39,628 nt of DNA from a virus. Lineage: Duplodnaviria > Heunggongvirae > Uroviricota > Caudoviricetes. The stretch is taken from IMG/VR virus record IMGVR_UViG_2554235126_000004; one strand, 5' to 3'. A program made the translations under genes and the position numbers. The notes beneath the pieces were generated by a model. That model worked only from the letters and a program-made list of their open reading frames with translations, did not search any database and was not told the DNA's origin. Positions 4,416 through 12,346 of this stretch are shown piece after piece. The first letter of the stretch is position 1. The number at the start of each line of letters is the position of its first letter.

Positions 4416-4778
4416 TTAATGACCTGCTGCGCGGAGTTTTCCGTCAGGTTCACCGGCAAGAGTCAGTAATTGTCCCTGGTCTTCCTGCAGAATAGTCAGG
4501 CGACCACCGCGATTGACATACATCGGCGTTTCGGTGGTGTCTTCTTCAGAAATTTTCCCGCGGTTAGTCGGGCGAACATATGAGAGTTTGTGTTTGATTT
4601 TCACTCGGTTCTCATCAAATGGTTCGATTTCCAGGTTGAGTGAGACCTTACCTTTGGTTTTCGTGTTCATCACACCGGAAGCGACTTCACTGAGAACTGC
4701 GCCGATTTTGGTTTCAAATACGCCGCCGTCCAGCTCCCCGATAAATGCCTGCACATCAGTACTGCGTTCGCTAGCCAT
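4416..4778 (-). CDS. YfdP-like small phage protein
   Basis: Start placed at ATG 4778 (MASERSTDV...) with GAGGAG RBS; upstream in-frame extension to 5096 is Arg/Cys-rich and non-protein-like. Confidence 0.55.
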   Translation of the reverse strand: MASERSTDVQAFIGELDGGVFETKIGAVLSEVASGVMNTKTKGKVSLNLEIEPFDENRVKIKHKLSYVRPTNRGKISEEDTTETPMYVNRGGRLTILQEDQGQLLTLAGEPDGKLRAAGH

Positions 4779-5180
4779 TTTGCTGCTCCTCATCATATCG
4801 ACCCTGCAAGGCCGATTAGTTTCTCCACAAAACAGAGAAGAACACCTGCGGTGGCAGCCGCCCGGATGGATTGAGTTATGAGCCCGTCGTCCGGTGATGC
4901 TCTTCTCTGTTTTGTAAAAAGGACGGTACCAGCCGGAAGCAAGGGTACAAGCTGGTACCGCCAAGACTACACACAGCATAAAGTTGTGGTGCCGGGTGCC
5001 TCCCGGTGCCTGGCGAAGGTTGCACACCAGGCGGGTGGGTATCCACAGAAGGTCGACTGTCAGCCTCAACCTTAACCCGCGTGCGCTGAGCAGCATTCAC
5101 CACAACGCTAAGGATTCTCTCTGGTTGAAAATACTTAGCTGTTATGTGCCTGCTTTTAGCCACATCAGGCGAGGTGGACC
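4779..5180. other. GC-rich structured non-coding region with nested inverted repeats (candidate structured RNA)
   Basis: About 400 bp without plausible ORF; 15-bp perfect inverted repeat ACAAAACAGAGAAGA / TCTTCTCTGTTTTGT (about 4828-4916) enclosing further GC-rich stems; 9-bp stem GGTACCAGC/GCTGGTACC at 4925-4959. Confidence 0.3.
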
Positions 5181-5232
5181 TGGTTATTCCCCAACAACAA
5201 GGATTCGGTTAATCTGGTTATCCCCAACAACG
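5181..5232 (+). repeat. direct repeat CTGGTTAT(T)CCCCAACAAC x2 immediately upstream of the 144-aa gene
   Basis: Copies at 5181-5200 and 5214-5232, second ends 15 bp before ATG 5247; possible regulator binding sites. Confidence 0.4.
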
Positions 5233-5246
5233 CAAAAGGAAAAGAA

Positions 5247-5681
5247 ATGTCCGGTAATATCTACACGTTGTACAAATCCCACTGTGAAAATGTTGGAAAG
5301 TATCGGGGCATTGAAATCAGTGGGGTAGTGTCATCAGTCGAAATAAGCAAAGTGGAATCAAGGGCAACATTACTTACTCTTCTGGATCTTGTCTTACATG
5401 AGCACCGGAAGAAATTCGGCACTCCCTATAATCAGTTGAATGGGAAAAAGGCTCTGGTTCACCTTATTCTGATGAAGCATCACTGGATGCCAAAACAGAT
5501 TAATGAGATGAAATTTGATGAACTTCTTCTTTCAATTCAGGATGAACTCACACTTGATAAAATAAGCGTAACCGCCCAGAAATTTTTAGATTATCGAGAC
5601 TGGAGATCACAAATTCATCACTTTGATGATTTTGACGAAAATGAATGGGATCCTAATTTGTCTGCACAATATCTAAAGTAA
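5247..5681 (+). CDS. hypothetical protein (AT-rich cargo gene, opposite strand to early-left operon)
   Basis: 144-aa ORF with AAAGGAAAAG upstream of ATG; AT-rich codon usage unlike flanking genes; 3' end overlaps convergent 68-aa gene by 29 bp. Confidence 0.5.
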   Translation: MSGNIYTLYKSHCENVGKYRGIEISGVVSSVEISKVESRATLLTLLDLVLHEHRKKFGTPYNQLNGKKALVHLILMKHHWMPKQINEMKFDELLLSIQDELTLDKISVTAQKFLDYRDWRSQIHHFDDFDENEWDPNLSAQYLK

Positions 5682-5859
5682 CATCCTGTGATAAAACCGT
5701 GATTTCCTGATCCAGTTTTTTTAAGGAGTCTATTGTTTCCTGTCGATAAGACAGCACTTCACGAAGCTGGTTTATAGCTGCCAGCTTCTTTGCCATCCAC
5801 TCGTAAATTTCCTCATTTGTGTATCCGGGCGCGACGATTTTGGGTTCTGTTTTGTGCAT
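5653..5859 (-). CDS. hypothetical small protein, first gene downstream of pL-like promoter
   Basis: Start placed at ATG 5859 (MHKTEPK...) with GAGGAGG RBS 7 nt upstream; 68 aa. Confidence 0.5.
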   Translation of the reverse strand: MHKTEPKIVAPGYTNEEIYEWMAKKLAAINQLREVLSYRQETIDSLKKLDQEITVLSQDVTLDIVQTN

Positions 5860-5901
5860 TTCACACCTCCTCAAGTTATCAGTTACTTGTTGATGGGGAC
5901 C

Positions 5902-6093: not shown

Positions 6094-6768
6094 TTAGGCT
6101 TTGATTTTGTATCTTCTTGGTTTTCCTGAGAAAATCACAGTTCCAATTATAGAGCAATTACCGTTGATCTTAATGTAAGGCTCAGGCCAGTTTGGGTTTA
6201 ACGCTTTGAGATAACGCTGTGTCCCATCTTCTATCAACCTTTTGAAGGTGGTTTCACCTGTATCGTGCATCAATGCAATAACGTCGTCACCGTGGCAGGC
6301 AGGTACTTCAGGATCGACAAAAATCATGTCTCCCGGGCGGTACTCATCAATCATTGAATCACCTATCACCCGCAAGATATAAGTCATTTCCCCACAGGGT
6401 ACAGGGCAGGGATACGTTTCTGCTGTGCTCAAATCAACCTCAGAATATCCAACTTCTTTCCATGCTCCGGCCTGTACCCATGATATGACAGGGACTAATG
6501 TGATTTGTTTATTAGTGATTGAAACATCAGGTTTTTTTGTGATGTTCGTTGTCTGGTGTTCTTGATCGAGCCATCCGACAGGCAGGTCGAAACATTTTTC
6601 GATGTGTCGTGCCATGTTGTCACCGATATTTTTAGTAGCACCATCTCCCATAAACCTGCTGGTCTGGGTTGGCTCGCGATCAATCATAGTGGCAAAGGAA
6701 GAATTCCCGCCAACACCATCTCTCAGTTTTCTGGCGTTAGACCGCCGGATGTCATGGATTGTTTTCAT
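6094..6768 (-). CDS. CI-type prophage repressor (HTH plus S24 LexA-like peptidase domain)
   Basis: 224 aa; N-terminal HTH, C-terminal GDSM...K autocleavage-type motif; divergent from cro with operators between. Confidence 0.9.
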   Translation of the reverse strand: MKTIHDIRRSNARKLRDGVGGNSSFATMIDREPTQTSRFMGDGATKNIGDNMARHIEKCFDLPVGWLDQEHQTTNITKKPDVSITNKQITLVPVISWVQAGAWKEVGYSEVDLSTAETYPCPVPCGEMTYILRVIGDSMIDEYRPGDMIFVDPEVPACHGDDVIALMHDTGETTFKRLIEDGTQRYLKALNPNWPEPYIKINGNCSIIGTVIFSGKPRRYKIKA

Positions 6769-11963: not shown

Positions 11964-11980
11964 TTTTGTGGAGAAATTTG

Positions 11981-12346
11981 ATGCGTGATATTCAGATCAT
12001 CCTTGAACGTTGGGGGGCATGGGCAGCTAGTGATAGCTCAGGAGTGGACTATTCGCCTATAGCTGCTGGGTTTAAGGGACTTCTTCCCTATACCAGTAAG
12101 GCACGCCAAGCTTGTTCAGATAATGATGCGCTAATTATTGAAAGTTGCTTGGAGCAACTAAAAAAAAGAAAACCTTATGAGCATTCTTTACTGGTTGCGC
12201 ATTATTTGTACGGGTTTTCAAAGCGGAAGATTGCCAAAATACAAGGAAAGGATGAGAAATTAATCCGTATAGAAATATTGTTAGCAGAGGGATTCATTGA
12301 TGGTTGCCTTTCTACTCTCGATATTCATTTAGATATGGAGTTATAA
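11981..12346 (+). CDS. late-gene antiterminator Q (QuuD / phage 82-type family)
   Basis: Start placed at ATG 11981 (MRDIQIILERWGAWAA...) with GGAG RBS; strong pattern match to the Phage_antitermQ family as recalled. Confidence 0.8.
   Translation: MRDIQIILERWGAWAASDSSGVDYSPIAAGFKGLLPYTSKARQACSDNDALIIESCLEQLKKRKPYEHSLLVAHYLYGFSKRKIAKIQGKDEKLIRIEILLAEGFIDGCLSTLDIHLDMEL

Follow-up and report, generated by a model that had tools for sequence, protein, structure and literature searches.

STnc100 (Rfam RF02076) and the PasD sRNAs are the closest described relatives of the RNA analysed here. STnc100 copies are expressed in EDL933, where STnc100_4 was verified by Northern blot (PMC5331693), and PasD1/2 are Hfq-dependent with RIL-seq partners (PMC8550237). 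A third relative, sRNA-17 of E. coli K1 RS218/UTI89, was mapped as a 193-nt RNA by RACE at both its 5′ and 3′ ends and by Northern blot; its authors reported ArcA control and an own promoter and found no Rfam homologue (PMC7719688). In the sRNA-17 deletion, yfdP reads go up ~96-fold (PMC7719688), a rise that could be due to the resistance cassette. The literature on expression and Hfq covers these relatives (PMC5331693, PMC8550237, PMC12711010, PMC7719688), and Hfq-linked action in trans has been shown for PasD1/2 (PMC8550237) and claimed for sRNA-17 (PMC7719688).

Three further systems bear on the locus. The put RNA of HK022 is a cis-encoded structured RNA in the early operons of a lambdoid phage without an obvious N protein (PMC9378689). 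DicF ends at an intrinsic terminator and is freed from a polycistronic transcript by RNases III and E (bioRxiv 10.1101/2023.04.14.536235). The transcriptome papers examined for RNase III cleavage maps of the dicF-dicB spacer mention DicF only briefly. In lambda tI/sib, the sequence past the terminator completes a long double-stranded RNase III substrate in read-through RNA only, so that terminated and read-through RNAs have different fates; the sib element, located downstream of int, governs how the int mRNA decays.

Layout and strand of the locus

The window is the whole stretch of DNA that was analysed, 39,628 nucleotides of an SfIV/SfV-like prophage (IMGVR_UViG_2554235126_000004). The original prediction singled out positions 4779-5246 as a GC-rich non-coding region holding a candidate structured RNA, for which it gave no strand. 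The structured RNA is real and belongs to a known kind; the GC-rich gap is neither junk nor a dead gene, and its RNA, of the STnc100/PasD/sRNA-17 kind, is a diverged representative of an RNA family already described. The three checks named in the original prediction and run here, an Rfam/Infernal scan, covariation and fold prediction, all speak for it, and the degraded coding gene that would have refuted it is not borne out by the homologues. The left 400 bp (5177-4779) probably make up a non-coding RNA locus of several modules that is read from the minus strand, along the direction of the early-left (pL) operon. Its features and those of its neighbours are as follows.

4416 to 4778, minus strand: yfdP coding sequence, the gene next downstream of the RNA locus (annotation and phrog_204 match)
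4779 to 4821, minus strand: yfdP 5′ UTR, with a small hairpin at ~4817-4798 (seen in the fold) and the RBS GAGGAG at 4791-4786 (read directly)
4822 to 4920, minus strand: long Y-shaped hairpin, with a 25-bp basal stem (RNAalifold) and apical hairpins at 4893-4861 and 4859-4846
4916 to 4962, minus strand: intrinsic terminator, made of a stem-loop of 13 bp (4962-4922; perfect over the 10 bp at its core) and a U-tract at 4920-4916
4963 to 4982, minus strand: single-stranded linker UUUAUGCUGUGUGUAGUCUU, a candidate seed (unpaired in the fold; conserved)
4983 to 5106, minus strand: STnc100-type RNA core, ~124 nt, multi-helix (Rfam, covariation, fold, pseudoknot test)
5106-5098 paired with 4991-4983, minus strand: P1 closing helix (minimum-energy fold)
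5095-5082, minus strand: hairpin A (minimum-energy fold)
5073-5067, minus strand: pseudoknot 5′ strand AAGGUUG, pairing with the hairpin C loop
5066-5033, minus strand: variable middle with small hairpins
5032-5008, minus strand: hairpin C (stem in the minimum-energy fold), whose loop CAACCUU (5022-5016) pairs with 5073-5067
5006-4992, minus strand: hairpin D, CCGGG-AGGCA-CCCGG (minimum-energy fold)
5107 to 5177, minus strand: conserved leader upstream of the core, common to SfV, SfII and SKA5 (homology block limits)
5180-5198 and 5214-5231, no strand assigned: two direct repeats, CTGGTTAT(T)CCCCAACAAC, candidate regulator-binding sites
5247 to 5681, plus strand: ECs1072-family phage-associated gene (annotation; phrog_5286 match, E 1.5e-90), in an orientation opposed to the pL operon

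The raised GC content is borne out (0.52-0.57 in 4779-5246 versus 0.38-0.49 in the flanks). The start of yfdP is at 4778 and not at 4779. Folding energy is strand-specific and favours the minus strand, with z = -5.0 for the whole 467 nt against z = -2.0 for the plus strand. Homologues occupy the same place in ST64B, 118970_sal3, phiES15 and SfV and are always co-oriented with the pL operon. Among 5426 complete E. coli genomes, 2860 match a 601-bp query, part of which is yfdP itself, and 1028 hold at least 80% of it. K-12 CPS-53 was set aside as a reference for the yfdP upstream region, since only the last ~25 nt before the ATG are common. The GAGGAG RBS stands 7 nt from the yfdP ATG (4778-4776), and ARAGORN found no tRNA or tmRNA gene in the window.

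Upstream of the core, the best promoter site is the weak CTAAAA-17-AAGTAT (6/12 matches), and none there is convincing; expression in the lysogen is therefore uncertain and may require pL. The motif GCTAAGT (5139-5133) is also present just upstream of the mapped sRNA-17 5′ end in the mEp460 comparison.

The right 110 bp (5137-5246), a module separate from the RNA, are the control region that lies upstream of the divergent ECs1072-family gene. The direct repeats that the original prediction placed at the end of the structured region do lie there (CTGGTTATTCCCCAACAAC at 5180-5198, CTGGTTATCCCCAACAAC at 5214-5231), but they are probably part of this ECs1072-family upstream region and not of the RNA. 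They sit 15-67 bp upstream of the plus-strand gene, inside a block missing from SfV, and the 18-mer is found nowhere else in the window even when 3 mismatches are allowed (0.02 chance matches expected).

Fold and covariation of the STnc100-type core

An Rfam scan with permissive settings returned a full-length minus-strand match to STnc100 (model positions 1-206) at 41.9 bits, below the curated gathering score of 47; at the gathering threshold there was no Rfam match in the whole window. The E-value is 1.6e-7 for a 1-kb search and 6.4e-6 when the whole window is searched. Other copies from early-left operons also fall under the cut-off (phiES15 40.6, sal3 37.5, ST64B 35.1 and Qin 34.4 bits), while STnc100 copies of the late region score 57-138 bits. 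The window has every core helix of STnc100 (the closing one and those of hairpins A, C and D) as well as its conserved motifs, UGGUGAAU and CACCGGGAGGCACCCGGCACCA, and it shares the setting in a lambdoid prophage with an intrinsic terminator (4962-4916) after the core.

A covariance model was built here from 26 diverse phage copies. Model R1 gives the window core 83.7 bits, with the window sequence itself in the R1 seed. The whole family comprises 133 matches, 92 of them distinct, in which 92.3% of cells are paired, as compared to 78.5% in shuffled controls and at most 49% when the partners are slid. Double-sided changes occur in 14 of 24 pairs, and the seven pairs of hairpin C all covary. Covariation is also strong in the early-left subgroup alone (Escherichia, Shigella, Salmonella, Cronobacter, Enterobacter, Pantoea and Mixta), where 26 distinct sequences give 95.3% paired cells versus at most 46% slid. 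Hairpin D, otherwise invariant, has compensatory changes within this subgroup.

The minimum-energy fold of the core recovers P1, A, C and D. Taken alone, the core is not thermodynamically exceptional (folding z ~ -2 on both strands). Two private changes of the window allele weaken pairs, one at 4874 and the other a G-to-U change at 5092 in hairpin A.

Support for the pseudoknot between the AAGGUUG strand and the hairpin C loop comes from a test that needs no alignment: 81% of 62 cognate strand/loop combinations (~40 sequence types) form six or more contiguous pairs, compared with 14% for shuffled loops and 20% for non-cognate loops. The pseudoknot is absent from the Rfam consensus line and from the comparative paper used here. 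In the window, its 5′ strand can also pair locally with 5056-5049 (8 bp), and the minimum-energy fold chooses this local pairing. Together, these analyses show that the ~124-nt core adopts the STnc100/PasD fold, which comprises three conserved hairpins, the helix that closes the core and a pseudoknot from loop to junction.

The window copy shares with STnc100/PasD the core fold, the invariant 21-mer ACCGGGAGGCACCCGGCACCA, the location in a lambdoid prophage and the terminator after the core. It differs in hairpin A, which is of the UGCG/CGCA type as compared to CCCC/GGGG, and in its place in the early-left operon, whereas STnc100/PasD copies lie between Q and the lysis genes or downstream of stx2B. 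Unlike them, it has no promoter at P1 and adds a conserved UGCUGUGU linker and, after the terminator, a long hairpin.

Linker, terminator and long hairpin

Downstream of the core, the two stems of the original prediction fall into distinct elements. Its second stem, claimed at 9 bp, is a perfect 10 bp (CGGTACCAGC/GCTGGTACCG, 4924-4933 and 4951-4960) and forms the core of the intrinsic terminator, a segment that folds with z = -4.4 on the minus strand versus -3.0 on the plus strand. Its 15-bp perfect inverted repeat is present (ACAAAACAGAGAAGA at 4827-4841, TCTTCTCTGTTTTGT at 4901-4915), and the bulged extension proposed for it holds as well, with 25-nt arms that are 84% complementary and an RNAalifold stem of 25 bp (4920-4822). 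This is the basal stem of the long hairpin, whose first five pairs take up the terminator U-tract (U4920-A4822 onward).

The long hairpin folds with z = -5.75 on the minus strand versus -3.4 on the plus strand. It has 5-6 G-U pairs, which are A-C mismatches on the opposite strand, and four pairs with compensatory changes. The same U-tract-absorbing architecture recurs with unrelated arm sequence in L092 and L071, and in L108, L114, L119 and L122 the long hairpin precedes different genes. By analogy with lambda tI/sib, we regard it as a candidate RNase III site in read-through transcripts. The analogy is partial: the lambda hairpin extends its terminator hairpin, whereas the window hairpin adjoins it, and the window element lies upstream of yfdP, where RNase III cleavage is proposed on the strength of the lambda case.

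The 3′ module of the locus is shared with sRNA-17. With mEp460 standing in for RS218, the sRNA-17 alignment rows match positions 2910-2718 of mEp460 (L134), spanning from the base that opens P1 to the U-tract of the terminator found in the window; this terminator hairpin is the mapped sRNA-17 3′ end in mEp460-type prophages. The two RNAs share their locus, which in both cases lies upstream of yfdP in an SfV/mEp460-like prophage, and they have P1 strands, terminator and long hairpin in common. Window positions 4700-4964 are 96-97% identical to mEp460 and its relatives. The homology ends at 4964, and there is no identity over the whole 193-nt sRNA-17. The core interior has diverged, with mEp460 reaching only 21.1 bits with model R1 and carrying a hairpin D of the form CCGG-AGAUCAGCA-CCGG, and the mEp460/sRNA-17 linker, CAGCCACUGCUU, differs from that of the window. 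ArcA control and an own promoter are features reported for sRNA-17 and not established for the window copy. The linker motif UUGCUGUGU, which reads AUGCUGUGU in the window, is found again in relatives of the Salmonella, Cronobacter, Citrobacter and Pantoea type.

The linker and first bases of the terminator stem weakly resemble DicF (UUGGCGGUA-CAG; UUGGCGGUACCAG in the window against UUGGCGGUAUCAG in DicF). This likeness is no more than suggestive, because the Rfam DicF model (RF00039) gives only 19.4 bits with E 0.19 at 4921-4975 on the minus strand. Membership of the linker/terminator module in DicF is ruled out by that score, which lies under the cut-off of 48 bits; a true DicF scores 76.7 bits. 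No target emerged for the window RNA: naive duplex energies of the linker and terminator with the ftsZ leader did not exceed those of shuffles, in a test that carries no information, since DicF itself was unremarkable in it. The dicBF operon of Qin is, like the window locus, part of the early-left operon of a lambdoid prophage, and in K-12 Qin an STnc100-like core is directly flanked by dicF and dicB (59.3 bits, E 3e-13). Module order differs, with DicF then core in Qin and core then DicF-like module in the window. Four items treated separately in the cited literature are united by these comparisons: Rfam STnc100, the PasD sRNAs, sRNA-17 of meningitis-causing E. coli and the undescribed K-12 dicF-dicB element. 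Added here are the pseudoknot and the terminator-plus-long-hairpin architecture, both directly testable.

Proposed function and competing readings

In the model that we favour, transcripts ending at the terminator would give an sRNA of ~190-215 nt. The structured 5′ domain would lend this sRNA stability, and the free linker and U-tail would allow action in trans, probably with Hfq, as was shown for PasD1/2 and has been claimed for sRNA-17. The terminator would double as a barrier between pL and yfdP-yfdQ-yfdR-xis-int. Read-through transcripts would form the long double-stranded hairpin, which RNase III probably cuts, parting the sRNA from the yfdP mRNA; lambda tI/sib and the RNase III/E processing of DicF serve as working analogies. 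For the window RNA, we infer RNase III cleavage, Hfq binding and trans action from such analogies. The model as a whole, in which an STnc100-type core, linker, terminator and U-tract-absorbing hairpin release an sRNA and have the read-through hairpin processed, seems to us a likely account of the locus. If the terminator/hairpin pair works as proposed, one transcript yields an sRNA and also gates excision and early genes.

A purely cis-acting leader is an unlikely alternative that still merits weighing. Here the core would be a sensor or factor site (for RNA polymerase or an antiterminator) that sets terminator read-through much as a riboswitch, put or nut site does, and the released RNA would be a by-product. 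The aptamer-like appearance of the core suits this reading, with its closing P1, multi-helix junction, pseudoknot and invariant unpaired bases, as does the alternative local partner of the pseudoknot strand in the window. Of 109 distinct contexts in the family, 66 (61%) show the core followed by a strict terminator, which begins 14-31 nt downstream in 56 of the 66, and copies lie directly ahead of toxic or lytic genes, namely kil in phiES15, dicB in Qin and holin in many phages. Yet linkers and terminators vary among copies, and candidate antiterminator pairings between core and terminator, sought by eye only, exist but differ from copy to copy with none obviously conserved. No ligand or protein partner is known for the core, and the relatives accumulate as discrete Hfq-bound RNAs. 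Many copies are self-contained, in tandem arrays with a promoter starting at P1, so sRNA genes fit them better than a cis leader does.

Identity with put itself was considered and rejected on three grounds: the core has no HK022 similarity, a different architecture and the wrong position. HK022 put is ~70 nt, has two stem-loops and is promoter-proximal, whereas the window core is ~124 nt, pseudoknotted, immediately followed by a terminator and ~920 nt from the pL-like promoter. A separate conserved 65-nt element right after pL is a better put-like candidate than the core.

Rather doubtful, in our estimate, is the notion that the core, beyond stabilising the 5′ end of an sRNA, is a module dedicated to binding a partner, be it a small molecule, RNA polymerase, an antiterminator or a nuclease of the host, and that lambdoid phages set it before a terminator where dangerous gene blocks begin (kil, dicB, holin and, in the window, yfdP-xis-int). 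If true, it would define an unrecognised class of phage cis-regulatory RNA that would join STnc100, PasD, sRNA-17 and the K-12 dicF-dicB spacer.

The palindromes and repeats could also be DNA-level elements, serving as protein-binding or recombination sites at mosaic module boundaries. Homology blocks between phages do stop at 4964, ~4815, 5177 and 5231, adjoining the structured modules, and the direct repeats at 5180-5231 resemble binding sites. For the RNA locus, we consider this very improbable: the G-U pairs give strand-asymmetric helices, a pseudoknot and multi-helix covariation are meaningless in double-stranded DNA, and the homologous locus has a mapped transcript (sRNA-17). For the direct repeats alone, a DNA-level reading may hold.

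That the segment is a decayed protein-coding gene is scarcely credible, despite a PGAP “frameshifted hypothetical protein” at 4793-5103 on the minus strand, SfIV gp34 (a 226-aa extended YfdP) and gp35 annotated as ORFs, two ORFs matching phrog_33599 and phrog_3651 of unknown function, and long open stretches in all three minus-strand frames, which are expected of GC-rich, stop-poor sequence. The earlier view that there is no plausible ORF here was too strict, as ORFs of 49-114 aa exist on both strands, but none is conserved as a frame and Pfam matches none of them. In a set of 85 distinct homologues, the stretch that precedes hairpin D takes 26 lengths, spread evenly over the mod 3 classes (32/25/28 in classes 0/1/2), and each frame is open in at most 47 of the 85. 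Close relatives differ by 1-nt indels (window versus ST64B; L108 inside the hairpin), and the window-ST64B differences in the hairpin do not cluster at third codon positions; what the substitutions preserve is base pairing. Public records have hypothetical proteins, a frameshifted pseudogene or a blank where the RNA locus sits, and this annotation is corrected here.

Core of the minus-strand RNA

The window is a lambdoid E. coli prophage of the SfIV/SfV type, and across the 601 bp that surround the finding it shares 98-100% identity with many E. coli chromosomes and with phages such as SfIV and Kati. The neighbouring features are:

4416-4778, minus strand: yfdP, left neighbour
5247-5681, plus strand: ECs1072-family gene, right neighbour
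5653-5874, minus strand: gene for a 73-aa protein, first after pL (phrog_1744, function unknown, no Pfam match)
6054-6027, minus strand: strong pL-like promoter, TTGACA-16-CATAAT, to the right
6094-6768, minus strand: cI-like repressor, to the right

Given the repressor and the minus-strand promoter, leftward early transcription runs through the region along the minus strand before reaching yfdP, yfdQ, yfdR, xis and int. The original prediction described 4779-5246 as a GC-rich candidate structured RNA. The GC content is indeed raised (0.52-0.57, vs 0.38-0.49 in the flanks), and the predicted repeats are present: the 15-bp perfect inverted repeat (4827-4841 / 4901-4915), the direct repeats (5180-5198 and 5214-5231), and the second stem, which proves to be a perfect 10 bp (4924-4933 / 4951-4960). 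A permissive Rfam scan matched STnc100 (RF02076) over the full model length at 4913-5136 on the minus strand (41.9 bits, E 1.6e-7), below the curated cut-off of 47 bits; STnc100 was the sole match in the permissive scan of the whole window (E 6.4e-6). The structured-RNA interpretation holds. The element belongs to a known prophage sRNA family, of which it is a divergent member left unannotated; it is the counterpart of sRNA-17 and not a new kind of system. Its parts are:

5106-4983, minus strand: core, with helices P1, A, C and D
5073-5067 with 5022-5016, minus strand: pseudoknot pair AAGGUUG/CAACCUU
4982-4963, minus strand: unpaired linker UUUAUGCUGUGUGUAGUCUU, directly after P1
4962-4922, minus strand: 13-bp terminator hairpin (z = -4.4), with a U-tract at 4920-4916

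A viral-contig scan for the invariant 21-mer ACCGGGAGGCACCCGGCACCA returned 120 loci, and reading their cores revealed a common architecture of P1, hairpin A, a single strand, a variable middle, hairpin C and hairpin D. The closing helix P1 pairs (G)UGGUG with CACCA(C), extended by outer pairs that covary, and the invariant hairpin D (CCGGG-AGGCA-CCCGG) is stacked directly on the P1 3' strand. All four helices are reproduced by the minimum-energy fold of the window core. Fold prediction over 467 nt gave z = -5.0 for the minus strand vs -2.0 for the plus strand, and the minus strand is fixed as the RNA strand because G-U pairs are frequent. Window-type hairpin A was found by genome scan in 24 further loci of Escherichia, Shigella, Enterobacter, Pantoea and Mixta. 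Two changes are private to the window allele as compared with SfIV and most relatives, G to U at 5092 in hairpin A and C to U at 4874 in an apical hairpin of the long stem; each weakens a predicted pair or turns it G-U.

A covariance model built from 26 diverse cores (R1) found 133 copies in 100 loci. Standard pairs occupy 92.3% of cells in its alignment, vs 78.5% in column shuffles and at most 49% with slid partners; because the alignment was fitted to the model, the figures lean towards structure, with the margin over slid controls still large. Changes on both sides are seen in 14 of 24 pairs, and hairpin C covaries in all seven of its pairs. The early-left-type subgroup alone (26 distinct sequences) has 95.3% of cells paired vs at most 46% when slid, including compensatory changes in hairpin D (G-C to U-A five times, C-G to U-A twice).

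The single strand that follows hairpin A complements the hairpin C loop, and both change together across copies: phiES15 has AAGGCUGG/UCAGCCUU, and further pairs are AGACUGACAAA/UUUGUCAGUCU, CCAGUC/GACUGG, AUCAGCA/UGCUGAU and CUGGUG/CACCGG. In an alignment-free test, at least six contiguous pairs formed in 81% of 62 distinct cognate combinations vs 14% with shuffled and 20% with non-cognate loops. Neither the Rfam consensus line nor one comparative study of the family includes this pseudoknot. In the window core, the minimum-energy fold instead pairs the pseudoknot strand locally with 5056-5049; within 5073-5049 the 5' strand AAGGUUGA can form 8 bp with UCGACCUU. Two mutually exclusive predicted structures are thus possible in the window copy. 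Only the pseudoknot covaries across the family, and ST64B and phiES15 keep the local pairing only in part. Collectively, these comparisons demonstrate the fold and the pseudoknot of the core.

Terminator, long hairpin and coding potential

The linker motif UUGCUGUGU, which reads AUGCUGUGU in the window, is also found in the copies of ST64B, phiES15, phiNP and the Pantoea type. Directly 3' of the terminator lies the long inverted repeat of the original prediction. RNAalifold on 11 variants resolves it as a 25-bp stem, whose first five pairs are made with the terminator U-tract, with two apical hairpins, 5-6 G-U pairs and 4 compensatory pairs; folding is again stronger on the minus strand (z = -5.75 vs -3.4). 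The same terminator-plus-hairpin block precedes unrelated genes in four compared loci (L108, L114, L119, L122), and two others (L092, L071) repeat the design of a terminator followed by a long U-tract-absorbing hairpin with unrelated arm sequences. On both grounds the long hairpin is part of the RNA locus rather than of yfdP.

Annotators have read the region as protein-coding. SfIV gp34 is an extended YfdP of 226 aa, gp35 is another call within the region, and PGAP places a frameshifted pseudogene at 4793-5103. The claim of no plausible ORF thus stands only in part: ORFs of 49-114 aa occur on both strands, some of them annotated, and coding signal is absent. Two ORFs match PHROG families of unknown function, both of which most likely gather calls that annotators made on this very sequence; no ORF of the region has a Pfam match. 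Among 85 distinct homologues, the distance between the start of P1 and hairpin D takes 26 values spread over classes 0, 1 and 2 mod 3 (32, 25 and 28), and any single frame is open in at most 47. Single-base indels separate close relatives, and the long hairpins of the window and ST64B differ without third-codon-position bias. We therefore reject a protein-coding gene, and with no frame conserved among the homologues a degraded one finds no support either. These data establish the terminator and the hairpin that absorbs its U-tract, show that position and strand are conserved, and reveal no coding signal.

Family members and proposed action

Relatives of the element are expressed. PasD has been related to STnc100 by Zhu, Shabalina and Storz (bioRxiv 10.64898/2026.05.13.724894), and PasD1/2 are Northern-verified and Hfq-dependent, with RIL-seq partners (PMC8550237). 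EDL933 expresses STnc100 copies, one of them Northern-verified (PMC5331693), and a copy downstream of stx2B is overlapped by an Hfq-bound RNA (PMC12711010). RACE and Northern blotting put sRNA-17 of E. coli K1, from an mEp460-like prophage, at 193 nt; yfdP reads rose ~96-fold when it was deleted, and the authors found no Rfam homologue (PMC7719688). The published alignment matches mEp460 (L134) from GUUGUGGUGAAUGCGC... to ...GGUACCGCUCUUUU, 2910 to 2718, exactly 193 nt, so that the RNA begins at the first P1 base and extends to the U-tract of a window-type terminator. The terminator is the same as the window's, whereas the core interior is a diverged version (21 bits with R1).

In K-12 Qin, R1 detects a copy between dicF and dicB (L131:1956-2082; NC_000913.3, ~1649455-1649581; 59.3 bits, E 3e-13), which scores 34.4 bits with Rfam, below cut-off; the MG1655 record has no ncRNA feature at this core. 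Its hairpin D is CCUGG-AGGCA-CCAGG, and it is closed by a P1 extended to ~21 bp, beginning 8 nt after the DicF U-tract. The Qin operon, from whose polycistronic transcript DicF is freed with RNase III and RNase E (bioRxiv 10.1101/2023.04.14.536235), gives a precedent for sRNA processing from early-left operons.

Copies that exceed the Rfam cut-off, at 57-138 bits, are found in the interval from the Q antiterminator gene to the lysis genes, often in tandem arrays. Arrays of 3-4 cores, most units with a terminator, occur in L068:4380-5461 and in L023, L031 and L014; the four L068 copies lie between Q and the holin gene, with an isrI-like RNA embedded. Phages with late-region copies appear to have another Q type (that of L068 matched phrog_753 only); the window's Q (11966-12346) is of lambda type (PF06530, E 1.3e-48), and the permissive whole-window Rfam scan found no STnc100-like RNA in its late region. 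Q type and presence of the RNA may be associated. A strict terminator lies within 130 nt of the core in 66 of 109 distinct contexts, starting 14-31 nt after it in 56. Sigma-70 promoters with at least 9/12 matches occur in 25 of the 109, the -10 element ending ~4 nt before P1 in 22; copies with a promoter so placed are self-contained sRNA genes. The early-left copies (window, SfV, ST64B, sal3, phiES15) all fall below the Rfam cut-off, and none has a P1-placed promoter. The only clue to a promoter of its own is a GCTAAGT motif common to the window copy and the stretch just upstream of the sRNA-17 start. In ST64B (L003:21-97), an isrK-family RNA (64.3 bits, above cut-off) lies in the right operon near early-right genes, on the strand opposite to the STnc100-like element.

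We propose that termination at 4916-4920 would yield an sRNA of ~190-215 nt, which, once released with a free linker and U-tail, would act in trans. The terminator may also restrict transcription into yfdP-xis-int, and read-through transcripts would form the 25-bp helix and then be cut by RNase III. Three points may be new, and are testable: the pseudoknot, the terminator-plus-long-hairpin design that recurs, and the connection with the K-12 dicF-dicB spacer.

Right-hand part and pL leader

The stretch 5137-5246 is outside the RNA homology block. Homology with SfV, SfII and SKA5 extends only to 5177, beyond which SfV carries a different gene and an annotated terminator. The direct repeats, unique in the window, lie 15-67 bp upstream of the ECs1072-family gene and are most likely regulatory sites of this inserted gene or of a divergent promoter pair. 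The 73-aa protein gene converges on the ECs1072-family gene, overlapping it by 29 bp at its own 3' end, and holds the position where N usually lies in lambdoid phages.

Right behind the pL-like promoter, phages of Escherichia, Salmonella, Klebsiella, Citrobacter, Pantoea, Yersinia and Pectobacterium share a conserved ~65-nt element, AACAGGCAGGACGCCCACGAAGUAGCCGCCUGGGGCAUAUGAAGUCCAGGAUGAUUCG (6014-5946, minus strand, in the window). Its folding energy is unremarkable (z = -0.3), and it showed no similarity to HK022; it is a candidate promoter-proximal, put-like antitermination RNA. At 5937-5901 (minus strand), in the pL leader before the first early gene, a hairpin AAGCGCCCUACAGGACGCUU precedes GCUCUUUAACAAU, a match to the ribosomal-operon boxA consensus; at the sequence level, this combination suggests Nus-factor-dependent antitermination in a phage without an obvious N protein.
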